NCBI GenBank assembly: GCA_037137535.1
Contig: JBAXKC010000001.1
Coordinates: 256,001 to 320,000, forward strand
Origin: a bacterium
GTDB taxonomy: Bacteria > Cyanobacteriota > Vampirovibrionia > Gastranaerophilales > JBAXKC01
Direction of reading: 5' to 3'
Length of the DNA: 64,000 nt
Below, in pieces: positions 21,626 through 50,150 of this stretch. The position numbers and the translations under genes are program-made. Position 1 is the stretch's first letter. The number at the start of each line of letters is the position of its first letter. The notes under the pieces are model-generated. The model saw nothing but the letters and a program-made list of their open reading frames with translations, had not been told where the DNA came from and searched no databases.

Positions 21626-22180
21626 ATGGTATTAGCTCATCGTAGTGGTTTTACTGCGTCAAATTTTGGTATGCAAATTGGCTTTGGTTATTATTCAGTA
21701 ATGAAAAAAATTGCAACAAAAGAACATGTTCATTGTGCCTATGGAGGAGAAGAACTTAATGAAGATAATCCTGCAACAGCCGAACATGTAGAACCACATA
21801 GTAAGGGTGGAGCAGATGATGATTCTAATTTTTTACCTGTATGCGAAAAACACAATGGAGAAAGAGGATGTAGATCATATAAAAGATTTTTAAGAGAGAA
21901 ACCAAAAGTCTGGAATAATATAAAAAGAACCATTTTAGAAATAAATAAAATTAAAACTGAGAACTTTGATGGACATGAATGGGCTAAAAAAATTATAAAA
22001 GCAGTTGAAATCCAATCAAAACAAAAACTTAACATTGATATTGATAATGAAGAAAATAATATATTAAATAAAGAGGAAGACCATTCTGAAACGGAATACG
22101 ATTTAGATAAGACATTAATTACTACATCAGGTAAAAAAATATATATAAAACGTGAAAAGCCTTTAGATCTATTTGCTTAA
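21626..22180 (+). CDS. HNH-fold endonuclease-like protein
   Basis: TAEHVEPHSKGG...SNFLPVCEKHNGERG. Confidence 0.8.
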   Translation: MVLAHRSGFTASNFGMQIGFGYYSVMKKIATKEHVHCAYGGEELNEDNPATAEHVEPHSKGGADDDSNFLPVCEKHNGERGCRSYKRFLREKPKVWNNIKRTILEINKIKTENFDGHEWAKKIIKAVEIQSKQKLNIDIDNEENNILNKEEDHSETEYDLDKTLITTSGKKIYIKREKPLDLFA

Positions 22181-22776: not shown

Positions 22777-23442
22777 ATGTCTTTATCAAATTACGGTTCT
22801 TTTGGTATGCAAAATTTACACGCTCAAATTGGTTTTGGCTATAACTCAACAATGAAACACGTTGCAACAAAAGAACATGTACATTGCGCTTATGGCGGAG
22901 AAGAGCTTACTAGCGGACATCCTGCAACAGCAGAACATGTAAAAACTCACTCTTCAGGTGGAGCAAACAGCGACTCTAACTTCTTACCAGTATGTCAAGA
23001 ACACAATGGAGAAAGAGCAAGCATTCCATTTCCTAAATTTCTTGCTACTCATCCAAAGGCATGGAATAACATTAAACAAACCATTCTTGAACTAAATGAT
23101 GTAAAAACATCTGACTTTGATGGACATAAATGGGCTCAAAATATTGTTAAAGTTGTTGAAAAAGAATCAGGCCGTCACATGGACATCACGCTGGGAGATG
23201 ATGATGAAGTGACAACAAGAGATTATTCCTCAGAAATAAAAGACTCTTCTGATAATGAAGAAATCGATAAAACTTTAACAACGAGAACAGGTAAAAAAAT
23301 ATATATTGGTCAAAATAAACCACTAGATATTATTGAAAATGGTGAAACAGAAACGGAGCCGGAAATCGATAAAACTTTAACAACCAGATCAGGCAAAAAA
23401 ATATATATTGGAGAAAATAAACCTATAAACTTCTTCGCATAA
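22777..23442 (+). CDS. HNH-fold endonuclease-like protein (paralog) with duplicated C-terminal module
   Basis: TAEHVKTHSSGG...SNFLPVCQEHNGER; EIDKTLTTRxGKKIYIG occurs twice (102-nt period, 23260 and 23362). Confidence 0.8.
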   Translation: MSLSNYGSFGMQNLHAQIGFGYNSTMKHVATKEHVHCAYGGEELTSGHPATAEHVKTHSSGGANSDSNFLPVCQEHNGERASIPFPKFLATHPKAWNNIKQTILELNDVKTSDFDGHKWAQNIVKVVEKESGRHMDITLGDDDEVTTRDYSSEIKDSSDNEEIDKTLTTRTGKKIYIGQNKPLDIIENGETETEPEIDKTLTTRSGKKIYIGENKPINFFA

Positions 23443-24717: not shown

Positions 24718-25005
24718 CTAGTAGGAATTTGAATAGCAAGATTTACATAATACAGGTCTGTCGCTTGATGGTTTGAAAGGAACTTGAGCAGCTCCACCAC
24801 AATCGGAACATACAGCATCGTACATTCTTTTTTGTTGGAATCCACCAGCACTTCTTCCGCCACCTTTTCTAGCGCTACGGCAAGGCTTACATCTTTTTGG
24901 TTGGTTTGTTAAACCTTTTGATTCGTAAAATTCTTGCTCGCTTACTGTGAAATCAAATTCACAACCACAGTCTGCACATTGTAAAGTAATGTCTTGATAC
25001 GCCAT
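24718..25005 (-). CDS. Zinc-ribbon + CxxC-x17-CxxC domain protein
   Basis: CADCG...FTVSEQEFY...PKRCKPCR and CSDCG...VPFKP...PVLCKSC. Confidence 0.9.
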   Translation of the reverse strand: MAYQDITLQCADCGCEFDFTVSEQEFYESKGLTNQPKRCKPCRSARKGGGRSAGGFQQKRMYDAVCSDCGGAAQVPFKPSSDRPVLCKSCYSNSY

Positions 25006-25397: not shown

Positions 25398-27056
25398 TTA
25401 AAATTTAAATTTTAATCCTGCTTGAGCCGAATAATCACCGTTGTCTAAAACATATGATAAGTTAGCATATGGATTTAATCCGTTATCTTTATTTCCTGAT
25501 AATTCAAGATCAAATTGTGGTGTTACGTTGCGTCCTGACTCAAGAGGTATATTTACAGCTACTCCCGCATTAACATTCACATCAGGAATACTTAAGTTAG
25601 GATATTTTGCTCTGTCCTCAACAGGAATACCAAAAGCATTATTATTGTAGAAAGCTCCTGCTCTTACATAAGGGGTATTACTAAATCCTGTTGTTTGACC
25701 TATAACTCCAAGATCTTTTGAAATTTGAGAACCATCATTAAATTTAGCAACTAAAGAACCTGATGTTTGAGTGTTATAAGGGTTATTTAAATTCAAACCA
25801 AGCCCTAATCCTAATCCATATCTTTCATTAGTAGTCGGATTGTTTTTATCGTCAAAAAGTTTATTTCCAATGTTTAAATTTGCTTGTAAAACTGCTTCAC
25901 CTCTTGCAGGAGTTGTATCCACAGATAAACCTGTTCCAATTGAGCCATCATTATTTAGCTTTTCAGTTCTAAATGAAATAGCAGGATCTGTTGGCAATAA
26001 TTGATTATTTGTTGAAAGTCCTAATCCTGTATTAACTATAATTCCTTCTTTTGTTTTTGGATCAACAGGTGCGTTTGTTAGGGTGCTTGCGACAGGAGAA
26101 CCAAGCCTTTTATTTGAAGTAACTAAACTTATTTGAGGCTGTTCCGGAGGAGTAGGTTTATCTTCGGGCTTTGTAGGCTCTACCGGTTTAGGATCTACGG
26201 GTTTTGTTGCGTCTGGAGTATCATAAGAACTGCTTAAGAGTTCCATTACGTTTTGATTTGTAATTTCTTTTCCATTTACATTTCCACAAAAATTCCAATG
26301 TCCAAAAGCTTCATCTTTTAATACTTGGACAGAATCACCATTTGGCATAAAGATAGCATACATTGTTTCATTATCTCTTTTTATTCTTGCTCCGTTAGGG
26401 AAAGATATTTCTTGCCCCGGCTGAATATCTTTACCATCAACCTTTAATGTATTTGAGCCTTCATTTATTTGAATATTATTTCCGCCGATTTTTATATTGC
26501 CGCTTGTTATGCCTTCATTTCCATTTGGCAATTTTCTTACGTTTACATCGATTGAATAATCTTTATCGCCTAAGTTTTCAGCATTAGCATCATGGTTTAC
26601 AAAATTTGTAGGCTTATTTAGAGTTGATACATCTGAAACTAGACCTGTTGCATCATTATTTCCTTTTACGGTCAAAAGATTTAAATTTTCATATAATCCT
26701 TTTGGAATATCAACAGTAGTCTTGTCATGAGTTGCATTAGGGTCGCTACCTGATCCCCAGAAGAAACCCGGTAACTTTGTTGTTGTAGGCTGAGAGACTG
26801 ACTTTATATCTGTACTAAAATGTCTTGCTGCATTTGCAGCTTCTACTGTTTTTTCAAAATCCGCAAAACCACTTTTAAAATCAGTGCTATTCATCAAGTT
26901 CTCTAAAGAATTTGCAGGAATATTAATACCATCCTTTTTCCAGATACTTGCCTGATCAGCCACAGCCTTTTTCTCAGCTCCGGGAACAAGTCCGGTGTTT
27001 AAAGTTACAGGTGCCTTACCTACGAGCTGACTAGCCTGATTAATGAATTCTCCCAT
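25398..27056 (-). CDS. Hypothetical protein: passenger-like N-domain, Pro-rich linker and beta-barrel-like C-terminus
   Basis: ATG 27056 has an AAGGAG RBS; linker PVDPKPVEPTKPEDKPTPPEQP; amphipathic strands ending YSAQAGLKFKF. Confidence 0.65.
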   Translation of the reverse strand: MGEFINQASQLVGKAPVTLNTGLVPGAEKKAVADQASIWKKDGINIPANSLENLMNSTDFKSGFADFEKTVEAANAARHFSTDIKSVSQPTTTKLPGFFWGSGSDPNATHDKTTVDIPKGLYENLNLLTVKGNNDATGLVSDVSTLNKPTNFVNHDANAENLGDKDYSIDVNVRKLPNGNEGITSGNIKIGGNNIQINEGSNTLKVDGKDIQPGQEISFPNGARIKRDNETMYAIFMPNGDSVQVLKDEAFGHWNFCGNVNGKEITNQNVMELLSSSYDTPDATKPVDPKPVEPTKPEDKPTPPEQPQISLVTSNKRLGSPVASTLTNAPVDPKTKEGIIVNTGLGLSTNNQLLPTDPAISFRTEKLNNDGSIGTGLSVDTTPARGEAVLQANLNIGNKLFDDKNNPTTNERYGLGLGLGLNLNNPYNTQTSGSLVAKFNDGSQISKDLGVIGQTTGFSNTPYVRAGAFYNNNAFGIPVEDRAKYPNLSIPDVNVNAGVAVNIPLESGRNVTPQFDLELSGNKDNGLNPYANLSYVLDNGDYSAQAGLKFKF

Positions 27057-27622
27057 CTTAATACTCCTTTTATAAATTTTACATTTTAAATATTTCGTAT
27101 ATATTTCGTATATATTTATAAAAACATTTCGCATGAAAAAATTGCCTGTTAAAAGCCAATATTCATGTTTTTACCATAATTTTTATAAGAAAATACTACT
27201 AAACACTTTAATTACAGACCATTTGACAAATCTAAAGTTTTGTAACATTTGCTTGCGAATTATTAATTTTTTAGTCAAATAAAGAAATACCTCTTTATTG
27301 TTTGTTTTTTTATAATAAAGCATTAAAATTTAATTAAAATCAAACAATTAATTAAGTTTTAATCTATTTCAATAACCTTAGAGATTAAAATTCAGTTTAA
27401 AAACAAAAAAATAATGCTCTATCAATTAAGAACATATTTTATTCCCCAAAATATATTTATTTTATTTAATCTAAGAATTGACCAATGACAATAAATTCTC
27501 TATAATGAGATATATAGTTGAATCTACATGAATCAAACAAAAGAAATCACAATAAAATCACCATAACATCAGAAACTGACTTTCAAAAATTGTAATATTG
27601 TAAAAAAATAGGGCTGGATTGT

Positions 27623-28507
27623 TTGAAAATTAAAAATAAAAAATTATATTTTAAGACTGGCTTAACTCTTGTAGAGTCTTTATTTGTTATGGTAATAATG
27701 AGTACAGTTTTAATATCCAGTATTCCTATTTTTGCCAATAAAAAAATACTTAGAACAGACACTCCAAATATTGGAATTGTGGCAATTTGGGCAAACCCCG
27801 GAGCCATTCCTTCAAACTTTCTTGAATGTAACGGACAAGCATATAACGTAGCTGACTATCCTGATTTATTCAACATTATTGGAACGTCCTACGGTGGAGC
27901 AGGCTCAACTTTTAATGTCCCAAACTTACAGGGAAGAACTGCAATAGGAGCAGGAACTGGAGCTGGACTTACAAATAAAGTATATCAAACAACAGTAGGC
28001 TCTGAGGAAGAAAGTCTTACATTAGCTCAACTTCCAAACCATGTTCATATCTTTAACGACCCTGGACACAAACACTGGGACTCAGGACATGCTCATGGAA
28101 CAAGCGACCCTGGACACAAACACTGGGACTACGGACATTCTCACACTTTATGGGATGGCTGGCACAGTCATTATTATAGAGATGTTTATTATTCTGAGTT
28201 TGGCTCAACTCCTGTCCCATGGGACATAGGAACAAATGCCAGAAGTGATTATGACAATAAAGGTCTTGAAATTCGCAGAAATACAAACTGGACCGGCTCG
28301 AATATCGGAATATATAATGGTTATGCAAATGTATCCTATCAAAGTAGCAATCTTGCCGCTTCTACTAATAACGGTAATGCTTCCATTCAATCAGCTCTAA
28401 GCAATGTAACCGTACCTGTAAGCGGTGGAAGTGGAACTGCAACAGGAAATCCTCATGAAAATATGCTTCCTTTTAGAGCTTTAAGATATATTATTAGAGC
28501 AAAATAA
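27623..28507 (+). CDS. Type IV prepilin N-terminus fused to phage tail-collar / HxH fibre domain (copy 1)
   Basis: G|LTLVE...P22; collar FLECNGQAY...YPDLFNIIGTSYGG...FNVPNLQGR; six HxH motifs; C-terminal HENMLPFRALRYIIRA. Confidence 0.88.
   Translation: MKIKNKKLYFKTGLTLVESLFVMVIMSTVLISSIPIFANKKILRTDTPNIGIVAIWANPGAIPSNFLECNGQAYNVADYPDLFNIIGTSYGGAGSTFNVPNLQGRTAIGAGTGAGLTNKVYQTTVGSEEESLTLAQLPNHVHIFNDPGHKHWDSGHAHGTSDPGHKHWDYGHSHTLWDGWHSHYYRDVYYSEFGSTPVPWDIGTNARSDYDNKGLEIRRNTNWTGSNIGIYNGYANVSYQSSNLAASTNNGNASIQSALSNVTVPVSGGSGTATGNPHENMLPFRALRYIIRAK
28057..28130 (+). repeat. Intragenic 26-bp direct repeat, 48-bp period
   Basis: CGACCCTGGACACAAACACTGGGACT at 28057 and 28105, encoding DPGHKHWD twice. 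Confidence 0.9.
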
Positions 28508-28548
28508 TAACTGATTAATAATTACGTTTCATAAGAAAAGAGGCTGGA

Positions 28549-29526
28549 TTGACAAGAAATCTTAATACTAAAAAATCACTTAAATTTCCAAGAAATGGTT
28601 TAACTATTTCAGAAGTATTAGTTGTTATGGTTTTATTTGGTGTTATTGCTGTTTCTTCTATACCTGCTTTTACTTCTAATGAAACTCAAAACAGAGATTT
28701 AATAGCAAGTATTGGAAGTATTATGCTATGGGCAGGTAATGGAAATCCTCCGCCTAATTTTGTTGAATGTAATGGACAATCACTCAACAAAGCTGATTAT
28801 CCACTATTATTTGGTGTTATCGGAAATACCTACGGTTCTACAGCAACAAAATTCAACGTTCCTGACATAAGAGGCAGAGCCGTAATAGGGGCAGGACAGG
28901 GAACAGACCCAAGTCCCTATTCAGGAGTAAGCCCAAACCTGACTCTTAGAAATTTTAAAGATATAGGCGGAACTGAAACTGTCACTCTTACAGCCGCTGA
29001 TTTGCCTAATCATGCTCATGGAGTAACAGATCCCGGACATACTCATTCAGATGCGGGGCATGCCCATTCGGTTGCAGACTATGGACATTCTCATGTTGAT
29101 TGGGGGCATGTTCACTCAGTATGGGATGGCGGACATTCTCATTACTATGATGATATTTATTATGCAGAAAGTATGGGTTATGCTAAATGGATATCAGGTG
29201 GTGGAGCAAATCCACATGGATATAATCACCCAAGCCCTAACGGACCTTTTGTTGGTAATGGACAAGGAGATTGGACAGACTTTGACAATGGCGGACATGA
29301 TATGGGACGTTGGACAAATGCTTCACCTTCGAATTTAGCTCTTTATCCAGGCTATGCAAACCTTACCTATAATGGAACAAATGTAACCTTTGGGACAGGC
29401 TATGCTAATCTTACCTCTAATTCGGCAAACCTCACAATAGTTCCCAGCGGAGGAAGTAATCCGGTTACTCCGCATAATAATTTGTCAGCTGCTCTTGTAT
29501 TAAAATATGTAATTAAAGCCCGATAA
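28549..29526 (+). CDS. Type IV prepilin N-terminus fused to phage tail-collar / HxH fibre domain (copy 2)
   Basis: G|LTISE..G14..P22; FVECNGQSL...YPLLFGVIGNTYG...FNVPDIRGR; six HxH motifs; HNNL...LKYVIKAR. Confidence 0.88.
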   Translation: MTRNLNTKKSLKFPRNGLTISEVLVVMVLFGVIAVSSIPAFTSNETQNRDLIASIGSIMLWAGNGNPPPNFVECNGQSLNKADYPLLFGVIGNTYGSTATKFNVPDIRGRAVIGAGQGTDPSPYSGVSPNLTLRNFKDIGGTETVTLTAADLPNHAHGVTDPGHTHSDAGHAHSVADYGHSHVDWGHVHSVWDGGHSHYYDDIYYAESMGYAKWISGGGANPHGYNHPSPNGPFVGNGQGDWTDFDNGGHDMGRWTNASPSNLALYPGYANLTYNGTNVTFGTGYANLTSNSANLTIVPSGGSNPVTPHNNLSAALVLKYVIKAR

Positions 29527-29556
29527 AACATAATACGCTTATAGAAAGAGGACAGG

Positions 29557-30447
29557 ATGTTAAATTCTTTAAAAATTAAAAATAAGAATAAAAGATTTGG
29601 ACTATCTCTTACAGAAGCGTTAGTTGTTTTAATGGTTGCAGGTGTTGCAGTTGCTGCCTCTATGCCAACAATGTCGGTAAAGACATTACTTAAAACTAAT
29701 TCAGATGTAAGTATAGGTGCTATTGTAATATGGGCAAACAATGGAGCTATTCCTGCTAATTACCTTGAATGTAACGGCCAAACCGTAAACAAAGCAGATT
29801 ATATAAACTTATACAGTATTATTAGCGGTACTTATGGACAAACGGCAACTCAATTCAATGTTCCCGATTTAAGAGGCAGGACTGTTATTGGAATGGGAAA
29901 AATAAGTGCCTTGAGCAAACAACGTAATTTTAATGATGTGGGTGGTAAAGAAAAAGTAAGACTTATTGATACAAATTTACCTGCTCATTCCCATATAGTT
30001 AACGACCCGGGTCATACTCATGCAGACCTCGGGCATACTCATCCTGTTTATGATCCGGGGCATAAACACTGGGATTATGGTCATAGCCATGGAGTATGGG
30101 ATGGTGGACATAGCCATGAATATGGCGATATATATTTTTCAGAATCATGGGGCTGGGTTCCGACACCTGATGGTTTTGGACACTGTGCTAAAAGCGATAA
30201 TGACAACTATGGTTTTCAAATGGGACGCTATACTGATCTAGCCACAAGTAATATTGGTGTTTATCCTGGTAATGCAAATTTCACAACAGAACATACAGGT
30301 GTTTCAGCTGCTACAGGTACGGCAAATCTTGGCAATTCAGTCACAGGTGTTAACTTAAACGCACCTGCAACAGGTGGCGACGATAATAATCTTCATGAAA
30401 ATATGCCGCCGTTTTACACATTGAGATATATCATTAGAGCAAGATAA
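29557..30447 (+). CDS. Type IV prepilin N-terminus fused to phage tail-collar / HxH fibre domain (copy 3)
   Basis: G|LSLTE..G14..P22; YLECNGQTV...FNVPDLRGR; six HxH motifs; HENMPPFYTLRYIIRAR. Confidence 0.88.
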   Translation: MLNSLKIKNKNKRFGLSLTEALVVLMVAGVAVAASMPTMSVKTLLKTNSDVSIGAIVIWANNGAIPANYLECNGQTVNKADYINLYSIISGTYGQTATQFNVPDLRGRTVIGMGKISALSKQRNFNDVGGKEKVRLIDTNLPAHSHIVNDPGHTHADLGHTHPVYDPGHKHWDYGHSHGVWDGGHSHEYGDIYFSESWGWVPTPDGFGHCAKSDNDNYGFQMGRYTDLATSNIGVYPGNANFTTEHTGVSAATGTANLGNSVTGVNLNAPATGGDDNNLHENMPPFYTLRYIIRAR

Positions 30448-30471
30448 CTAATTTTTTATATTAAATATATT

Positions 30472-30508
30472 AAAAGAGCTGTTAAACTTAAAAATTAACA
30501 GCTCTTTT
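30472..30508. terminator. Bidirectional intrinsic terminator
   Basis: AAAAGAGCTGTTAA...TTAACAGCTCTTTT closes the three-gene operon. Confidence 0.75.
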
Positions 30509-30532
30509 TGATAAATAATATAATAATGCCTT

Positions 30533-31208: not shown

Positions 31209-32093
31209 TTAACAATTATCTATTTTCTTATAATTTGTTAATATCCAACTTTTTGACTTAATTTTTTCCTGTAGAATCAAATCTTGTGTTGTTAAAAACT
31301 CGATATATCTAGGATTTTTAGGATTAAGATCTTTAAATTTACAGGGATGAATAAGCATTTCAGTAATACAATTTTTGTCTTTAATACTGTTTAAGCCTGA
31401 TTCAATAGTTTGTGAGTCCATAAACCCTGTATAAGCTACACCGATTATGTAATCATTTGTTTTAACACCATATTGAGCAGCAGTTTTATGATTTATTGCT
31501 GATAAATGATTAAGCAGAGCCACTTTTATAGTATTTAAAGGATACCAGAGGTTTAAATGCTTTTGCAGTTGCGGGACTACATAAGGTTTTTCATATTGAG
31601 TCCTTACGTAAGTAATATTATATTCTTTAGCAAGTTTACATGTAATTTCAAATATTGGGGGAATAGCATGGATATGAACATGTGAATTCAAATGATCGAC
31701 TTCAACTTGAGAAAGAATAAGTTCTATTTGATTTCTGAAGTCGTGTTCAATTTCTAGCAATAATTTTTTATTTTTTGATTTTGCAAGAAGAGAATGAAAA
31801 CTATTTTGATAAGTTCCATCTGAAGAACATAATAACGAAGAAGCAGAATAATTTTTCAGAGTTGTTTTGCCTTCCATTATATTTAAGTGAACGCCAAGCC
31901 CCATCTCCTCACATTCAGGAAGCACTTCTTTTATAGCATGCTCAAAAGCCTCTCCATTTGCACAAAGACATGCACTTGTGAGAAAACCTTCTTTATATCC
32001 AATTTTTACGCCTTCGTTAAAATCTTTATTTATACCAAAATCATCAGCATTAAAAATAAGTAATTTTTTATTGCCCGAACTCTCCAACTTCAT
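31209..32093 (-). CDS. YdjC/ChbG/HpnK family carbohydrate deacetylase
   Basis: LIFNADDFG, GVHLN, HLNSHVHIH, and EMLIHP. Confidence 0.92.
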   Translation of the reverse strand: MKLESSGNKKLLIFNADDFGINKDFNEGVKIGYKEGFLTSACLCANGEAFEHAIKEVLPECEEMGLGVHLNIMEGKTTLKNYSASSLLCSSDGTYQNSFHSLLAKSKNKKLLLEIEHDFRNQIELILSQVEVDHLNSHVHIHAIPPIFEITCKLAKEYNITYVRTQYEKPYVVPQLQKHLNLWYPLNTIKVALLNHLSAINHKTAAQYGVKTNDYIIGVAYTGFMDSQTIESGLNSIKDKNCITEMLIHPCKFKDLNPKNPRYIEFLTTQDLILQEKIKSKSWILTNYKKIDNC

Positions 32094-32229
32094 TTATAAT
32101 GCTCCAAAATAAGTTTATTAAACTACTTTTATAACTAGGGAATAATTTATTCTTATATTAAACTCAGACTCATTATATTATAATAATTGTAGATTGTAAT
32201 AATTTTTAAATTAATAAAATGGTGGATAT

Positions 32230-33183
32230 ATGCAAAATCCTATTTTGGCGATAGTTATTCCATGTTTTAACGAACAGGATTTAATAAAAAGCACGATTAA
32301 CAGTTTACTTTGTAAAATTAAAGAACTGTCAAATTCAAATATCATAAGTGATGAAAGTTTTTTATATTTTATAGATGATGGTAGTCACGATGAAACGTGG
32401 AATATTTTGCAAAAATCCAACCAAGAAAATTCTAAAGTAAAAGCACTTAAACTTTCAAGAAACTTTGGAAATCAAAATGCTTTACTAGCAGGACTTTTAG
32501 GAGTTCAGGCGCTTAATCCCGATTGTGTAATAACAATGGATGCCGACCTTCAGCAGGATGAAAACAGTATTAAAGAATTCATAGAAAAATACAAAAACGG
32601 TGCGGATATTGTCTGCGGAATAAGAAAAGACAACGAAACTTATTCAATTTTCAAAAATTGCACTTCAGTTTTATTCTATAAATTAATGAACTTAATGGGG
32701 GCAAAAATTGCTGAAAATCATTCTGATTACAGGTTGATAAACAAAAAAGTCCTTAATGTATTAGCCGAATACAAAGAAGTAAATTTATTTCTTAGAGGAA
32801 TTTTTAACGAATTAGGCTTTAAAACAGAACATGTTTATTTTGATGTAAAACCCCGAGCAATAGGTCAATCAAAGTTTGGAATTTTAAAGCTGTTGTCGCT
32901 TGCGTTAAGCGGTATTACTTCCTTCAGTATAGTTCCATTAAGGATAGTCTCAGTTATAGGGTTATTAATGTCATTTTTTAGCTTTTTAATGGGAGTAGAG
33001 GTTATATACGAAAAAGTCTTTGGAACAGGAGTTATTCCTGGTTGGGCAACAATTGTAGTTGCTGTTTGCTTTATAGGCGGTGTTCAAATTTTCTGTACGG
33101 GTATTATCGGTGAATATTTAGGACAAGTCTACAAGGAAACAAAGGCAAGACCTAGATATGTAAAAGATATTGAGCTTTTATAA
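32230..33183 (+). CDS. Polyprenol-phosphate glycosyltransferase, GT2 (GtrB/ArnC-like)
   Basis: IPCFNE, DDGSHD, LSRNFGNQNAL, MDADLQ, two C-terminal TM helices, and ETKARPRY. Confidence 0.92.
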   Translation: MQNPILAIVIPCFNEQDLIKSTINSLLCKIKELSNSNIISDESFLYFIDDGSHDETWNILQKSNQENSKVKALKLSRNFGNQNALLAGLLGVQALNPDCVITMDADLQQDENSIKEFIEKYKNGADIVCGIRKDNETYSIFKNCTSVLFYKLMNLMGAKIAENHSDYRLINKKVLNVLAEYKEVNLFLRGIFNELGFKTEHVYFDVKPRAIGQSKFGILKLLSLALSGITSFSIVPLRIVSVIGLLMSFFSFLMGVEVIYEKVFGTGVIPGWATIVVAVCFIGGVQIFCTGIIGEYLGQVYKETKARPRYVKDIELL

Positions 33184-33255
33184 ATTATCTTACTTTTAAT
33201 ATTAAAAAAACAGCCTGTTTTAAAAAAATAGGCTGTTTTTTATAGTTACTTAATT

Positions 33256-34959
33256 TTAATCGGAAATTATTTCTGACAATAAAGAATATTTTTTTCCTTT
33301 ATTTACTATCTTAAACTTAATATTTTTAGCAGTATCTTCAAGATTTTCTGTCTTTATAATTATTACGGAATTGACAGTTAAATCTCTTTTTAATCTTTGA
33401 TAATCGCAAGTTTTTATAAAATCAACTTGTTTTTCATAATAAAAAAGAGTGCTTGGTCTAACCCCAAAATCAAAAGTTATAAGTTTTTTATTATACTGTT
33501 TTGCAAACTTTGCATAACTTACAAGTTCATTCTCACCACCATTATAAATCATAGGAATTACATAATTTATTGAAATTAATAGAATCCCGACCATAAATAA
33601 AAGCTGTGATGTGAATAAAAGAACTTTTTTATTAAAACGAATGAATATAAAGTTTGCAATAGCTGTAATAAGTGCTAATGCAATAGTATAAGTTTTTAGA
33701 GGAGCTGAAAGAAATACAATTCCTTTATTATTAAGCACAGGCACTATAAAAATTGCAGCAACTCCTGCTAATAAAAGAATTACGCTAAAAATACCTGTTG
33801 ATATTTTAATTCCACTATTATTTTTGCCATTTTCAATAAATTGATACCAATAATAACCTGTTAATAAAGCTGCCGCAGGATATAGAGGCAAGATATAAGT
33901 TGCAAGTTTTGTGCTTGATGCGCTGAAGAATAACATTACTAAAGCAAAATAACAAATCATAAGAACTAATAATTTTTCGGTTCTTTTTTCTTCGTTTACT
34001 GCAAAAATATCTTTTAATTTTGTATATAAGCTCAAAATATTATCTTTGGTGAGATGTTTAATTCCATTAATTGTACTAGCTAAAAAAGAACAAATCCATG
34101 GAAAAAATCCAACTGCAAAGACAGGAAGAAAGAAGTAAAGAGGAGCCTGTCTTCCTATTCCTTTTGAATCAATAAATCTTGAAAAATGCTGTTTTATTAT
34201 ATAATCATTAACAAAAGCCATTCCGTTTTTATGGAATATTGCTAAATGCCATGGAAGAGAAATTGTAAAAAATATGACAAAACCAGGTAAAATATTTTCC
34301 GGCTTAAACATTTTTTTAAGATTACCAGTAATTGTAGCGACAAAACCCATAACCGCAAAAGGTAAAATCAATCCCGGTAGGCCTTTAGCTAAAACAGCCA
34401 AAGCACTAAAAAAATAAGCTGCCCACCAATAATACTTCTGATTTGACTCTTTGCAAAAATAAGTTAAAAATCCCGAATAAATTGAAGACATGATAAATGT
34501 AGAAAGAATCATATCAATTATTGCGACTCTTGCTAAAACCAAAAATTGTATACACGAAAGTAAAATCAACGCACTAATTAAACCAAATACTCTTGATATA
34601 GTCTTTTTACCGAAGTAATAAGTATAAAACACTGCAAAGCTGGCTGTTAAAGCAATTGGAAATCTCGCAGTAAATTCCGAAATTTTACCAAATAACATAT
34701 AAGAAGAAGCAAGCATCCAAAAATACAAAGGTGGTTTTTCATAAAAAATATTAAAATTAAGATGCATTGTTATCCAGTCGGATTTCTGCAATATTTCCCT
34801 TGCCATATCTGCATATCTTGTCTCATCAACGTCAATTAAAGGGTTTAATCCTAATTGATGAAATAGAAAAATATAACAAAAAACAAAAAGACATAGGCAA
34901 GACATAATTTCTGCGTGCTTTTTGCAAAATATTATTAAACTATTTATTGTATTTTTCAA
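33256..34959 (-). CDS. ArnT-like GT-C glycosyltransferase
   Basis: DVDETRY, YEKPPLYFW, LAKG, and TKLATYILPLYP; multiple TM helices. Confidence 0.9.
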   Translation of the reverse strand: MKNTINSLIIFCKKHAEIMSCLCLFVFCYIFLFHQLGLNPLIDVDETRYADMAREILQKSDWITMHLNFNIFYEKPPLYFWMLASSYMLFGKISEFTARFPIALTASFAVFYTYYFGKKTISRVFGLISALILLSCIQFLVLARVAIIDMILSTFIMSSIYSGFLTYFCKESNQKYYWWAAYFFSALAVLAKGLPGLILPFAVMGFVATITGNLKKMFKPENILPGFVIFFTISLPWHLAIFHKNGMAFVNDYIIKQHFSRFIDSKGIGRQAPLYFFLPVFAVGFFPWICSFLASTINGIKHLTKDNILSLYTKLKDIFAVNEEKRTEKLLVLMICYFALVMLFFSASSTKLATYILPLYPAAALLTGYYWYQFIENGKNNSGIKISTGIFSVILLLAGVAAIFIVPVLNNKGIVFLSAPLKTYTIALALITAIANFIFIRFNKKVLLFTSQLLFMVGILLISINYVIPMIYNGGENELVSYAKFAKQYNKKLITFDFGVRPSTLFYYEKQVDFIKTCDYQRLKRDLTVNSVIIIKTENLEDTAKNIKFKIVNKGKKYSLLSEIISD

Positions 34960-44073: not shown

Positions 44074-45393
44074 TTATCTTACACTCATACCTTCGTTAAG
44101 ATATTTAATTAGAGGATAGATAAAGAACTCAATAATTCTACGTTTTCCTGTTTTAATTTCGGCGGTAAGACTCATACCGGAGGAAATACCCATTCTTTTT
44201 CCTTCAACTTTAAATTCTTTTTTCTCAGGAACGATATAAACCTCATAAACAGGGCCTAATGTCTTATCATCAATACTATCTTTTGCTATTTGAGTAACTT
44301 TTCCACCTAAAAGGCCATATTTTTGGAAGTCAAAAGTATCAACTTTAATACTTACGTCCATGTTTTTACGAATAAACCCTATATCCTTGTTTAAAACAGT
44401 TGCTTTAATTAATAAAGGTGAATTACTGGGATACATTGAGATTAATTTCTGTGCAGGTGTTACAACACCGCCTTTTGTATGAACAAAAAGCTCATTAATA
44501 TAACCATCATCAGGAGCAGTAAGAACTTGTTTTTTATTTCTATATGCAGATTGATCTAATTGAGCTTTTAACTGAATCGATTGTTTTGTCTTATCTGCAA
44601 GTTCTTTTAATAACTCCGAACGGAAATTTTGACGAAGATAGCCCATTTCTTGAACAATTTGTCTTTTTTGCTGACTTAATTCCGATACTTTATAATTTGA
44701 ACTTTGTATATTTGCCGTATTAGTTGTAATCTCATCAGCAACCTTGTCATAATCATCTTTAGGAATAATATCAATAATCGGCTTTAATCGTTTTTCTTTT
44801 GAACTGGCCGTCCCTAAAAGTTTTCTATATTGATATTTTTGAGAAACAGCAGTTCTTATTTGCTCGTCTGTTTTACTTAATTCAGTATGTTTAGCGGCAA
44901 GTTGACTGCTTATACTTTCCCTTAAGGAGTTATAAACATCTTCCTGTTCGATAATATCATTTAAATCATATTTTTTAAATGATGGAGTAAATGCTCTACC
45001 CTCTGTAAGTGCTTTTAGTCTTTCAATTTCAAGAGAGATATATTTGTAGCTTTTTTCAAGCGATGTAAGTTCTGTTTTTGTTGTAGAAGGATCAATATCA
45101 ATAACAGGTTGACCTTTTTTTACAAAATCGCCTTCTCTTACATGAATAGTTCCAACTACACCTGAATCAAGCGGCTGTATTACCTTTATTTCACCGTCAG
45201 GAATTACTTTACCTCTGGCACTAACAACAATATCAATTTGCCCTACAGACGTCCAGATTATAAAGAAAAATATTATAGTTACAACAATCCAAAAGACAAA
45301 ACGACCTAATGGACTGACGGGTTCATCCTCTATTTCAGCAATAGCGGGTTTGAATTGATAGCTGTCATCTTTTGAAAAGATTTTTTTTAACAT
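44074..45393 (-). CDS. Type I secretion membrane fusion protein (HlyD family)
   Basis: One TM helix, IDIVVSARGK, coiled coil, and GMSLTAEIKTGKRRIIEF. Confidence 0.93.
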   Translation of the reverse strand: MLKKIFSKDDSYQFKPAIAEIEDEPVSPLGRFVFWIVVTIIFFFIIWTSVGQIDIVVSARGKVIPDGEIKVIQPLDSGVVGTIHVREGDFVKKGQPVIDIDPSTTKTELTSLEKSYKYISLEIERLKALTEGRAFTPSFKKYDLNDIIEQEDVYNSLRESISSQLAAKHTELSKTDEQIRTAVSQKYQYRKLLGTASSKEKRLKPIIDIIPKDDYDKVADEITTNTANIQSSNYKVSELSQQKRQIVQEMGYLRQNFRSELLKELADKTKQSIQLKAQLDQSAYRNKKQVLTAPDDGYINELFVHTKGGVVTPAQKLISMYPSNSPLLIKATVLNKDIGFIRKNMDVSIKVDTFDFQKYGLLGGKVTQIAKDSIDDKTLGPVYEVYIVPEKKEFKVEGKRMGISSGMSLTAEIKTGKRRIIEFFIYPLIKYLNEGMSVR

Positions 45394-47495
45394 TCATCGC
45401 TCTCCTGCTGGGTATAAAGATGATGGTAATAACCTTGGGCTTTCAGTAACTCATCATGAGAACCAGCTTCTATAATTTTACCTTTATCCATTGCGATAAT
45501 AATATCACAATCTTTGACGGTAAACAGTCTATGCGCAATTATCAGAGTAGTTCTACCTTTTTTAATTCGGCTCATATTATTTTGAATAATTTTTTCAGAT
45601 TCATAATCCAGTGCTGAGGTTGCCTCATCAAAAATCAATATCTTAGGGTTAGTAATAATAGCTCTTGCAATTGCAACTCTTTGACGTTGTCCACCGGAAA
45701 GAGTTGAACCTCTTTCTCCTACAAGTGTATCATATCCTTCAGGCAATTGCGAAATAAACTCATGAGCTCCTGCGATTCTTGCAGCCTCAATAATTACTTC
45801 CATAGGTGCTCCCGGACGAGCTAATGAAATATTTTCTCTTATAGTTCCGCTGAACAGGTAATTATCTTGTAACACAATTCCCATGTTATTTCTTAACCAT
45901 AAAGGGTTCATATGCTTAATATCTACGTCGTCAACATAGATAGCACCTTCATTTGTAAGATAAAGTCTTTGAATTAACTTAGTAACAGTACTTTTACCGC
46001 TACCACTTCTTCCTACAAGACCAACGGACATACCGGGCTGTACGGTAAAGCAAACTCTATCAAGGATATAAGGGGAACTCATATTGTATTTAAAACATAC
46101 ATTATCAAAACGAATGGATCCCTTAACATCATGGAGGGTAATTGCTTTATCCGTTTGAATTTCCACAGGGTTATTTAAAATATCACCAAGTCTATCAACT
46201 GCAAGTAACGTTTGTTGAAATTCATTCCATAAGTTTACAAGCCTTAAAACAGGGTTAGTAAACTGATTCGCAAACATTTGAAATGCGATTAACTGACCGA
46301 TTGTTAATTTATTCTCGATAACAAGCCTTACACCTATGTAAAGTACGAAAATAGTCATTAATTTTTGCAATCCACTTGAAGTAGCACCTGTTACAGTTGC
46401 CATATTAGAAAGATTGAAACTTGATCTTACATAGTTTGAAAGATAATCTTCCCATTTCTTTTGCATAGTTCCTTCTATGGATAGAGATTTAATGGTTTGA
46501 ATACCTGTTACAGACTCAACAAGATAAGAATTTGATTGAGCTGCCATTTGAAACTTATCATTAAGTCTTTTTCTAAGTTCAGGTGTAATAGTTACATAAA
46601 TTACAGCGACCATAGAAATAAATGCTAATACGATAAATGTAAGTTTAACGCTGTACAAGAACATTACCGCAACAAAAACAAGTGAGAAAAATAAATCAAT
46701 AATTAGAGAAACTGACTTGTTTGTAATAAATTCCCTGATAGAATCAAGCTCTCGAACTCTTGCGATAATATTTCCTACTTTTCTGTTTTCAAAATATACA
46801 AATGGAAGCGAGAATAAGTGCTTGAAAAGTTTTGCTCCTAATTTCGCATCAATTTTATTTGAAGTATGTATGAAAATATAATTTCTGGAAAGATTTAATA
46901 GGAATTCAAAAACGGTTACAGCAACGAAAGCAACTGCAAGCACATCAAGTGTTGTCAAACTGCGATGTACAATAACTTTATCGAGAATTACCTGAGTGAA
47001 CAATGGTGTTATAAGTCCAAAAAGCTGAACAATAAAAGAACCTAACAATACTTCAGCTATAACTGTTTTATAGCGCATAATTTCATTATAAAACCAGATG
47101 AAACCAAAAGTGATCTTAGCTTGATTAACCTTTGGCTTTAATATAATAAAACGACCAGAACCTTCTTCGGCTAAAGCTTGAAAGGTTAACTCTTTTGATA
47201 TTCTTTCAATAGTGTCAAAAATAAGAACCTTTTTATGCTCACTATTCAAACTTAAAATAATTTTATAATTTTTTTCTTTAGTTATATAAATAGCAGGTAA
47301 TGGATATTTTTCCAGCTGTTCCATAGTAATAGATTTGAACTTAGCTTTAAATCCATTATTTTGCATTATTCTAAGTAAATCGTAGTCAAGAATCTCGTTT
47401 TCATTTAAGCCATATTCTTTTATAATGGCTTGAATGTCGACATCAATTTGATTTATTCTTGCAACAACTTCAAAAGCTATTAGCCCAGTTTGCAT
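45387..47495 (-). CDS. Type I secretion ABC transporter (HlyB family, C39-like domain)
   Basis: LITPLFTQVILDKV, GRSGSGKST, LSGGQRQR, and DEATSALD. Confidence 0.95.
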   Translation of the reverse strand: MQTGLIAFEVVARINQIDVDIQAIIKEYGLNENEILDYDLLRIMQNNGFKAKFKSITMEQLEKYPLPAIYITKEKNYKIILSLNSEHKKVLIFDTIERISKELTFQALAEEGSGRFIILKPKVNQAKITFGFIWFYNEIMRYKTVIAEVLLGSFIVQLFGLITPLFTQVILDKVIVHRSLTTLDVLAVAFVAVTVFEFLLNLSRNYIFIHTSNKIDAKLGAKLFKHLFSLPFVYFENRKVGNIIARVRELDSIREFITNKSVSLIIDLFFSLVFVAVMFLYSVKLTFIVLAFISMVAVIYVTITPELRKRLNDKFQMAAQSNSYLVESVTGIQTIKSLSIEGTMQKKWEDYLSNYVRSSFNLSNMATVTGATSSGLQKLMTIFVLYIGVRLVIENKLTIGQLIAFQMFANQFTNPVLRLVNLWNEFQQTLLAVDRLGDILNNPVEIQTDKAITLHDVKGSIRFDNVCFKYNMSSPYILDRVCFTVQPGMSVGLVGRSGSGKSTVTKLIQRLYLTNEGAIYVDDVDIKHMNPLWLRNNMGIVLQDNYLFSGTIRENISLARPGAPMEVIIEAARIAGAHEFISQLPEGYDTLVGERGSTLSGGQRQRVAIARAIITNPKILIFDEATSALDYESEKIIQNNMSRIKKGRTTLIIAHRLFTVKDCDIIIAMDKGKIIEAGSHDELLKAQGYYHHLYTQQESDEC

Positions 47496-47590
47496 CTTTT
47501 ACCCTTTAAATAACTTGTAGTAGATAGATTATAGCTATAAATTTGTTTTTTGCAAATCAACCTACAAGAGGAGTTATTTACAAAATTAAT

Positions 47591-48901
47591 TTATAACGTC
47601 TGAGCAAGAGCCTGAATTTTCTTAGCAGCTGCAACTTTTCTTATAATAGATTCTTCCAACTGTGATTTTAAATCTAATAATTCTGTCTCAATTTGGAATA
47701 ATAATTCTTTTTCAACCATATTTTCACCGGAAAGTCTTTCAATCATAGAAAGTTTTTGATTAACATTTCCTAATAACTGTTGCTTACCTTTTAATTCTGC
47801 ATCCATTGTAAAATAATCAACTTGTATGGATTTTAATTGATTTTTATATTGAGCAACTTTTTTGTTTTTTTCATTTTCAAGCTTTGCCAATTCAAGTCTT
47901 AATTTTTTTACATCATTCATATTTTCAAATCCATCAAATAAAGTCATTTGAGTGGAAAAGCCAAAGTTTAATGCTCTTTGTCTAATATTTTCAAGAGATT
48001 TCATGTAATTATTTTTATCATCTCCATAAAGGTTATATGAAGAGAATAATTGAAACTGAGGTAAGTATTTTTTCTTTGCAATTTCAATTTCATCCTTTTT
48101 TTTGTTTATTTCTAATTGAGCTTGTTGAAATTCAGGGGTTTTTTCCAAATTAACTACTGTAGTGGAAATATCAGGAATTTCTGCATAATCTTCAAGTTTT
48201 GTACTATCATTATACTCTTCATTTGTATAAAAAGACAATTTGTTTAAAGTGTTTTGTAATTTTGCCTGTTCTTTATTTATTTCATCAATAGTTTTTGCCA
48301 TATTAATAGCTGAGTCAGTAAGATCAATTTTTGAGATTTTACCTGCATTATATAGTTTTTCTTTTATTTTAAAAAGACCATTATATGAGTTTAAAACAGC
48401 TTTTTTAGACGTAATAGTTTTATATGAAGACAAAGCTTCTGTATAAATATCAATTATATTTACGGTTAAATCTCTCTTTGTTTTAAATGCCTCAATACTT
48501 TTAATGGTCATATCCTTTTTAGCCATATTTAACTTACCTTTTCGTTGACCAAAATCATAAAGGTCATAATTCAAGCCTAAATAAGCTAAGTTTTGATATT
48601 GGATAGTACCAATAGTAGTCTGACCAACCGAAATTACACTGGCATTCTGACCTTGCAAATTTTTAGAATATTGGGAATTAAATCCTGTTTGCAGTTTAGG
48701 GAAATAAGAGGACTTTGCCTTACCTATTTCCGCTTTGCTTATTCCGATATCCAGCTTAGCAGCTTTAATATCAAAAGAATTACAGATGGCTTTGTCCAAA
48801 GTCTGCTCAAAACTTATTGACTCTGCCATCGTTGAATTTTGGCACAGACAATAAACTAAACCTATTATAAATGAGACAACCCCAGCCTTGAACTTTTTCA
48901 T
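47591..48901 (-). CDS. TolC family outer membrane protein
   Basis: Signal peptide; AKSSYFPKL and AKKKYLPQF repeats; LYDFG and LFDGF. Confidence 0.9.
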   Translation of the reverse strand: MKKFKAGVVSFIIGLVYCLCQNSTMAESISFEQTLDKAICNSFDIKAAKLDIGISKAEIGKAKSSYFPKLQTGFNSQYSKNLQGQNASVISVGQTTIGTIQYQNLAYLGLNYDLYDFGQRKGKLNMAKKDMTIKSIEAFKTKRDLTVNIIDIYTEALSSYKTITSKKAVLNSYNGLFKIKEKLYNAGKISKIDLTDSAINMAKTIDEINKEQAKLQNTLNKLSFYTNEEYNDSTKLEDYAEIPDISTTVVNLEKTPEFQQAQLEINKKKDEIEIAKKKYLPQFQLFSSYNLYGDDKNNYMKSLENIRQRALNFGFSTQMTLFDGFENMNDVKKLRLELAKLENEKNKKVAQYKNQLKSIQVDYFTMDAELKGKQQLLGNVNQKLSMIERLSGENMVEKELLFQIETELLDLKSQLEESIIRKVAAAKKIQALAQTL

Positions 48902-49115: not shown

Positions 49116-50150
49116 TTAAGTTGAGAATAACAAAAGAGAATAAGTTTCTATTATTGCTTTACCAAAAAACATTGCTATTATTGCCCCAAAAACAAGAGCC
49201 GGCCCGAATGGCAAAAATGTAAAACTTTGACGTTTTTTTGCTCCTTCAATAATGACTATTGCACCAATACCCGCAAGGAATAAAGCCACTAACATTGTTA
49301 ATAACGCACCGATAGTAGTATTTGAAATACCCAGTAATTTACTTAAAGAAGGAATAGCAAGAGAAAATAACATTAACGAGGTATAAGCAATTGATTTATA
49401 ATCTTTATCCTTATACATATTAATTACAATGATTGGAATACCGACTATAACCTGAAAAATCAAGCTCAATGCAACAATTAAAAATAATTGTTTAACTCCA
49501 AACCAAGCACCAAGTCCTGCCGCTAAAACAGTATCACCTTCGCCAAATGCTCTTTCTCCGACAAATATTTTTCCCAGTCTGGAAATAACTTCAAATAAAG
49601 CCGCTCCGACTATTGCTCCTAAAACTGAATAAAGAAAGGCTTCTGGCATAAATCCAAATACTGGAACACCAATAGATCCAGAACCATACCCTCCGATGTC
49701 AAAGAAACTATAAAGCAAACCCAATGGGATTAATGGAATTGATACAGCATCATAAATCAACTGTTCTTTTAAATCGGTAACTGTAATTACAATTAATCCT
49801 GCGGTAAGAATCATTAAGAATAAGGTTTTTAATGACATTCCAAAACTGAGGTATAAAAGTATAAATAATAAACAGGAAGCACCTTCAACCAATGGATACT
49901 GTATACTAATTTTTGCTTTACAATGCCTGCATTTAGCTTTCAAAAGAATATAGCTTAATATTGGGACATTATCATACCATGCAATTTTAGTATGACATTT
50001 AGGACATTCTGATCTTGGCCTCGCCATGCTTTCACCTGATAAAAGCCTTAATGCTACAACATTTAAGAAACTTCCGATTATTAAACCTAAAAAACCGGCA
50101 ACAAAAACGAAATAGGATTGGCTAAAAATATTAAAAACTTCTTCTGTCAA
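49116..50150 (-). CDS. pilD: Prepilin peptidase / N-methyltransferase (A24)
   Basis: GSFLNVV...RSECPKC...WYDNVPILSY...CRHC...YPLVE; GEGD; PFGPAL. Confidence 0.93.
   Translation of the reverse strand: MTEEVFNIFSQSYFVFVAGFLGLIIGSFLNVVALRLLSGESMARPRSECPKCHTKIAWYDNVPILSYILLKAKCRHCKAKISIQYPLVEGASCLLFILLYLSFGMSLKTLFLMILTAGLIVITVTDLKEQLIYDAVSIPLIPLGLLYSFFDIGGYGSGSIGVPVFGFMPEAFLYSVLGAIVGAALFEVISRLGKIFVGERAFGEGDTVLAAGLGAWFGVKQLFLIVALSLIFQVIVGIPIIVINMYKDKDYKSIAYTSLMLFSLAIPSLSKLLGISNTTIGALLTMLVALFLAGIGAIVIIEGAKKRQSFTFLPFGPALVFGAIIAMFFGKAIIETYSLLLFST

Follow-up and report, generated by a model that had tools for sequence, protein, structure and literature searches.

Modular type IV pilins, as defined by Raynaud 2021 (PMC8179133) and exemplified by PilB and PilC of S. 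sanguinis, join a class III signal to a grafted binding module that does not belong to pilus biology. Dataset S1 of that study lists pilin-FN3-collar with three collar units (one protein), pilin-shufflon-collar (one) and pilin-S74 (29), and Milman 2023 (PMC9881135) describes a PilV-collar fusion, proposed to be a phage domain repurposed for target-cell specificity in conjugation; in both papers the pilin-collar fusions are listed or proposed, not assayed. Trimeric heads on pilins are found in the type IVb homotrimers TcpB and CofB and in the heterotrimer GspIJK of the type II secretion system (T2SS), which are thought to prime filament tips (PMC9565799, PMC8179133). Bdellovibrio MAT fibres (PMC10769870) are phage-like trimeric adhesins in which tips are swapped on a common N-terminal base. 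Here we analyse a stretch of 64,000 nt from a genome of the Gastranaerophilales (the window, whose positions serve as coordinates throughout), in which three consecutive genes, A, B and C (27623-30447), encode a pilin-like helix fused directly to a phage-type collar and needle. We propose that these proteins may be minor pilins that together form the adhesive tip of a type IV filament.

The trio is a variant of the modular pilins, not a separate kind of system: it has the class III signal and the grafted foreign module, here the collar domain PF07484. PilB, however, keeps a complete pilin module, whereas A, B and C have only alpha1N, and their graft would be an obligate trimer. The PilV-collar protein likewise fuses a pilin to PF07484, but it carries PilV_N, has pilus operons as neighbours and owes its variation to DNA inversion, whereas PilV_N (PF04917) has no match in A, B or C, no recombinase was found among the 47 window proteins scanned, and there are no inversion-type repeats within the three genes. 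TcpB, CofB and GspIJK place three pilin helices under one trimeric head, as proposed here, but with other head folds, with full pilin domains and with genes inside a pilus operon. The MAT fibres are a functional analogue without pilins, having an ordinary signal peptide and a beta-rich base of ~130 aa where A, B and C have a pilin helix; neither 'pilin' nor 'collar' occurs in the main text of the MAT paper (PMC10769870). Our literature search for the pilin-collar architecture returned Milman 2023 (PMC9881135) as its only relevant match and nothing on this architecture in Gastranaerophilales, with subscription journals and bioRxiv supplements outside its reach. An earlier note on this DNA knew of no characterised system with this architecture; the design is nevertheless on record, pilin-collar fusions being present in both Dataset S1 and Milman 2023, even if the direct pilin-collar arrangement is not among the four collar occurrences of Dataset S1 (PMC8179133). 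New in this work are the arrangement as three headless genes and, in a relative, a split form whose secreted partner bears the last strand of the collar. We read the relevant InterPro entries of Dataset S1 as collar, FN3 and shufflon.

Three headless pilins with a collar-needle fibre

The genes and their domains are as follows.

Gene A, 27623..28507, + strand: 294 aa, TTG start; headless pilin, collar and HxH needle
Gene A class III signal, 27623..27727, + strand: basic leader of 13 aa with a terminal Gly, alpha1N helix up to P22
Gene A collar domain, 27773..27940, + strand: aa 51-106, PF07484 with E 2.3e-17
Gene B, 28549..29526, + strand: 325 aa, TTG start; architecture as gene A
Gene B class III signal, 28549..28665, + strand: 17-aa leader, alpha1N with E5, G14 and P22
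Gene B collar domain, 28714..28881, + strand: aa 56-111, PF07484 with E 2.5e-18
Gene C, 29557..30447, + strand: 296 aa; architecture as genes A and B
Gene C class III signal, 29557..29667, + strand: 15-aa leader, alpha1N with E5, G14 and P22
Gene C collar domain, 29716..29886, + strand: aa 54-110, PF07484 with E 3.3e-17

A class III signal is described as a hydrophilic leader up to a Gly or Ala, followed by 20-25 hydrophobic residues, often with Glu5 (PMC10191384), and this is what the N-termini of all three proteins look like. Their leaders contain five Lys or Arg residues each, no Asp or Glu, and end in Gly; Leu follows at +1, E5 and P22 are present throughout, the mean hydropathy of residues 1-21 is 2.0-2.4, and position 14 is Gly in B and C and Ser in A. 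The N_methyl profile PF07963 scores 13.2, 19.8 and 14.7 bits for A, B and C in the protein scan, against a cut-off of 21.2. Gene B passes this cut-off in a six-frame search (23.3 bits) and that of TIGR02532 as well, whereas A and C stay below both, for PF07963 in the protein and the six-frame search alike. The prepilin signal is therefore genuine, though not a typical one. In each protein 15-16 residues separate P22 from the collar, too few for a complete pilin module, and both alpha1C and the globular pilin head are missing.

The other end of the proteins is that of a phage fibre. The collar scores 62.6-66.2 bits (cut-off 24) and is followed by six HxH motifs per protein with an identical spacing of 9,7,9,7,9; paired HxH motifs bind metal in gp37, and we assume the same role for them here. 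The predicted structure of gene C consists of a single helix (18-34), the collar, the needle and a last strand (290-294), with no pilin head. The model is confident for the collar and the last strand but not for the needle, as expected of one chain taken out of a trimer. The best solved match to the trio is the long tail fibre of cyanophage A-1(L) (residues 168-360, E 1e-10), and in a fold comparison the gene C model resembles this fibre (8KEC; Z 10.9, rmsd 2.4, 115 aligned), T4 gp12 (1OCY; Z 10.9, rmsd 2.2, 99 aligned) and the tip of T4 gp37 (2XGF), all at Z 10.5-10.9. The aligned ranges with 8KEC and 1OCY reach the C-terminus, from which the collar fold is seen to be closed by the C-terminal strand. 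The A-1(L) arm is 180 Å long, is part of a trimer and binds the Anabaena surface, with the O antigen reported as its target (PMC10966104); scaled from it by length, the needles of A, B and C would measure roughly 20 nm. The collar and HxH needle are thus common to the trio, the A-1(L) long tail fibre gp34 and the T4 gp12/gp37 tips, but the phage fibres carry an N-terminal baseplate-binding domain where A, B and C have the pilin helix and, unlike them, the trio has no fibre chaperone gene nearby.

The three proteins are 40-47% identical in pairs and diverge most in their tip loops; B differs from A and C by a 10-aa insert after the collar and by a longer tip loop. All reading frames are intact. 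The genes are co-oriented, with spacers of 41 nt (A-B) and 30 nt (B-C), between two candidate signals:

Promoter candidate, 27478..27506, + strand: sigma-70-like, TTGACC-17-TATAAT, 11/12 consensus match, 117 nt upstream of gene A
Terminator-like hairpin, 30468..30513: A and T runs at its flanks, between gene C and a convergent SRPBCC gene

The promoter counts as a candidate only, because sigma-70-like sites number 26 against 19.3 expected. The hairpin (-17.3 kcal/mol, z -4.6) was equalled by 1 of 200 shuffles; a consensus terminator scan did not pick it up, and it is probably a bidirectional terminator. The description that the earlier note had given of this locus holds up: three ORFs at 27623-28507, 28549-29526 and 29557-30447, class III signals with a basic leader, E5 and P22 in all and G14 in two, the collar followed by an HxH shaft and a fibre-type C-terminal motif, and an operon-like layout closed by a terminator. 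Its expectation of finding the N_methyl and Collar domains in the same protein is borne out in part, since Collar is detected in all three proteins and N_methyl in B only, by the six-frame search.

Pilin-collar fusions in relatives

We searched a library of 1.84 billion representatives and ranked the matches by summed score. The pilin motif is present in three of the 147 non-self top matches (P0138, P0170 and P0263), and P0138 has the direct pilin-collar architecture of A, B and C. Two further matches, P0121 and P0125, are giant pilin-like FN3 proteins (4,600-4,800 aa) with 6-11 collar-needle units, mostly in threes; the two resemble pilins clipped at the N-terminus, and one of them clusters with a protein that bears the name prepilin-type. 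P0263 combines a pilin, FN3 and three collar units in one chain, and proteins like it occur in Saccharibacteria, with near full-length matches in 4 of 151 genomes of a family and matches in pieces in 3 more. In its model (predicted template modelling score 0.63) the three collar units are of high confidence and ~220 residues are unresolved, which suggests that the units pack together. Foldseek with this single-chain model returned nothing at E 0.001, the best match being 8KEC at E 0.013.

Within the order, a pilin+collar model gave full-span matches at E<1e-30 in 19 of 400 other genomes, all in one family (7 of the 19 seeded the model, and up to 11 candidates were scored per genome), and a single full-span copy is listed in 18 of the 19. 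Most of these genomes encode a pilin-collar protein of ~115 aa without needle, in conserved housekeeping synteny where inspected; at L046-L065, in genomes of family f3, it is single-copy and has no obvious binding tip, and it is possibly an adaptor or cap. The genomes G162 and G184 have several full-length, needle-bearing fibres as separate single genes. The relatives' proteins pass the cut-offs of both Pfam domains, and one is recorded under Candidatus Galligastranaerophilus. Gly or Ala at -1, Phe at +1, E5 and P22 are retained in 21 of 23 database relatives, the remaining two being N-terminal fragments, a count that is partly circular because the search model contained those columns; other helix positions vary. 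In a tree of the collar (71 columns, quick method) the pilin label needs four changes and A, B and C group with P0138 (support 86 in the Shimodaira-Hasegawa-like approximate likelihood ratio test, SH-aLRT), but a single origin of the fusion may still be compatible with it. Three apparent pilin-collar matches, in G179, G128 and G155, turned out to be ordinary pilins.

In a class-wide sample of 250 genomes, with up to 18 candidates scored in each, this genome was the only one to yield full-span fusions at E 1e-11, which for the others means not found rather than absent, and four collar matches in another family of the sample are prophage tail genes. Among the 120 of 177 matches listed from a word-based search with gene C, the pilin motif is present only in the trio itself, and there are no pilin fusions among the 80 loci listed from a metagenome scan. 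In other genomes of the order (L014, L094, L091, L075, L089, L090 and L092) the head on the same short stalk is YadA-head+S74, S74, a glycine-rich or a fibrinogen-like one; in our reading, the trio is one head type on an order-wide headless pilin stalk that bears other fibre heads elsewhere. Some pilin-like genes of relatives have runs of G9-G11 at or near their 5' ends (L192, L199, L073, L191), which suggests phase variation by slippage; the trio has no G/C run of six or more.

A split form is found in the relative G301, where the last strand of the collar is missing from at least 11 pilin-collar genes (about 118-137 aa). A gene for a secreted partner lies directly downstream in 9 of the 9 loci with assembled downstream DNA, and two loci run off their contig. 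These partners combine an ordinary signal peptide with two conserved Cys and a variable middle, and at their C-terminus a run of Gly precedes VN[YF]IIKA, which is the closing strand of the collar. The pilin-collar base would be completed in trans by the strand of its partner, as we infer from the two sets of sequences; CofB and TcpB carry a secreted partner as well (PMC9565799, PMC8179133). The split-fibre loci of G301 are L076, L077, L080 and L193-L198, many of them copies at contig ends.

A proposed heterotrimeric pilus tip and its alternatives

Our preferred reading, which we place slightly short of an even chance, is that A, B and C are alpha1N-only minor pilins with a collar-needle fibre that form one heterotrimeric tip adhesin. 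Each prepilin would be inserted in the inner membrane, where PilD would cut off the basic leader behind its Gly. One A, one B and one C would then assemble into a single trimer of the gp12/gp37 type, with paired HxH motifs binding metal along the needle, and three staggered alpha1N helices would join the tip of a type IV filament in the way of trimeric tip pilins, the linkers taking up the stagger. The variable tip loop would bind a surface glycan, most likely lipopolysaccharide, on neighbouring cells or in aggregates. Such a target fits by analogy with Saccharibacteria, whose minor-pilin adhesins act on host cell-wall glycans, in an account that makes no mention of the collar (bioRxiv 10.64898/2026.10.06.756255).

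One heterotrimer is the simplest reading because collar units come in threes and because a pilin with three units in a single chain exists. Counted with an iterated model, there are exactly three units in 120 of the 147 top library matches (two in 10, four in 3), and 125 of 175 tandem collar clusters have three. Moreover, the HxH register is unchanged between A, B and C despite their divergence, and only 1% of random trios of homologues have a common spacing. Several observations weigh against the heterotrimer or against the pilus. The ranking by summed score favours multi-unit proteins; it removes single-unit proteins from the list but leaves the preference for three over four or more unexplained. 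The equal register is weak evidence because A, B and C share descent, and HxH counts are equal in none of the five single-chain triplets that have at least three HxH. Many relatives have single-copy or scattered single genes, and there the fibres would be homotrimers or have other partners. The N_methyl scores of A and C are below the cut-offs, both proteins have, like B, Leu instead of Phe at +1, and the alpha1C and pilin head that characterised modular pilins use for packing are missing. Finally, pilus genes are not adjacent to the trio, and minor pilins are already encoded by an operon elsewhere in the genome.

The main rival is that the three proteins are alternative homotrimeric tips with different loops, giving a wider range of surfaces in the manner of the Bdellovibrio MAT repertoire. 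Phage fibres of the collar-needle fold are homotrimers (PMC10966104), as are TcpB and CofB (PMC9565799, PMC8179133), the fibres of G162 and G184 are encoded singly, nearly all positive genomes of the order list one full-span copy, and the tip loops are the most divergent part of the trio. We nevertheless find this option rather unlikely, given exactly three co-oriented genes with short spacers and one promoter candidate, collar modules that come in threes at the cell surface, and an identical shaft register at 40-47% identity. The complex prediction for mature A+B+C (score 0.34, control 0.21) favours neither arrangement. Whichever applies, display at a pilus tip, by a heterotrimer or by homotrimers, is probable. 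It is less likely still that the pilin-like helix is a mere membrane anchor or targeting signal, with fibres that sit in the inner membrane or are passed to a T2SS-like machine and never become filament subunits. The missing head and alpha1C, the weak N_methyl scores, the unlinked pilus genes and a second secretin/ATPase/platform cluster ~39-44 kb upstream of the trio on the same contig all agree with such an anchor, but a plain anchor has no need of an invariant G/A-1, E5 and P22, a receptor-binding needle in the periplasm would have no obvious target, and Geobacter has pilins that are headless sticks (PMC10191384).

That the trio is a relic or a spare tail-fibre set of a prophage or contractile injection system is very improbable. 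PHROG searches do return tail fibres, collar-only homologues of the class lie in prophage tail modules, and contig C35 of the same genome carries a Mu-like prophage with baseplate J, a sheath and a collar-type tail fibre of its own, which the end of the contig truncates. Yet the C35 fibre went undetected by tblastn with A, B or C at E 0.01, the 47 window proteins scanned include no match to phage structural or integrase families, in agreement with the earlier note, which had seen no capsid, baseplate, sheath or integrase neighbours, and the baseplate-binding domain has given way to a membrane helix. The frames are all intact, the GC content at third codon positions (GC3, 0.21-0.25) equals that of six host genes, and the inspected fusions of relatives lie in housekeeping synteny.

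The trio is real, domesticated and probably functional. Of the interpretation in the earlier note, the part that sees a phage receptor-binding fibre, domesticated and set on a pilin anchor, stands, on the retained signal in relatives, the host-like GC3, the position outside prophage and the pilus machinery in the genome; the part that assigns it to the recognition of prey does not, for predation has no support in Gastranaerophilales. The known predator Vampirovibrio chlorellavorus, which belongs to another order, is proposed to attach by a type IV secretion system, and we rejected the predatory reading as unsupported. A wider proposal, that the headless helix is a general fibre stalk of the order, that the A/B/C heterotrimer starts the pilus tip and that the tips of G301 are loaded by strand complementation, is on the doubtful side. 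If the heterotrimer is correct, an alpha1N helix alone would suffice for a type IV filament to take up an obligate trimer, a point of interest for the priming of pilus tips. The trio would also supply the first candidate adhesins for this uncultured order, whose members are relatives of cyanobacteria from gut and freshwater and have many pilin-like genes. Since pilins with three collar units also occur in the host-attached Saccharibacteria, it seems that pili have acquired receptor-binding fibres of phages more than once.

Genome context and expression

The prepilin peptidase that the earlier note had pointed out carries the expected domains:

PilD, 49116..50150, - strand: PF06750 (A24_N) and PF01478 (Peptidase_A24), with CxxC pairs and Asp motifs in the translation

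It is unlinked, 18.7 kb from the trio, and is likely to be its processing enzyme. Elsewhere the genome encodes PilB/PilT/PilC, PilMNOPQ, a short major-type pilin, a minor-pilin operon and a Tad cluster, the names of pilus subunits beyond the Pfam matches being our own reading of the sequences. The second type IV filament cluster (secretin, ATPase and platform, T2SS-like; G000:C1:239003-245108) lies ~11-17 kb before the window and is a candidate carrier for the many pilin-like proteins. There are 19 N-methyl matches in the genome, the trio included.

The locus is contained in sequencing runs of freshwater metagenomes. In one freshwater sample, RNA contigs, which show neither strand, nor level, nor a single transcript, cover parts of A, B and C, and one of them extends from inside gene A through the spacer and 23 nt into gene B; the region 31423-33500 is covered in a DNA run and has no RNA contigs. 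This cover is consistent with expression of the trio. A 2-base loss at an A7 run (27740) was confined to a single RNA contig (depth 2.35) and was treated as an error.

Several neighbouring genes have features of their own. A divergent gene of 552-578 aa (25398-27134, - strand), with RNA contig cover, has no Pfam match, a Pro-rich linker and no evident signal peptide; its C-terminus of alternating residues and Phe is outer-membrane-barrel-like, and its Atlas structure matches are weak and barrel-like, all Atlas matches being under 0.9 and adding nothing. A small Cys-rich, zinc-ribbon-like gene (24718-25005, - strand) has RNA contig depths of 176 and 51 in the two RNA runs, far above its neighbours, contig depth being a poor proxy for expression. 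Two tandem paralogues (21626-22180 and 22777-23442, + strand) have a 'DKTLxTxSGKKIYI' repeat at the C-terminus and a motif that weakly resembles HNH. Adjoining pilD is a type I secretion trio (44074-48901, - strand) of an HlyD-family protein, a C39-peptidase ABC transporter and an outer-membrane efflux protein.

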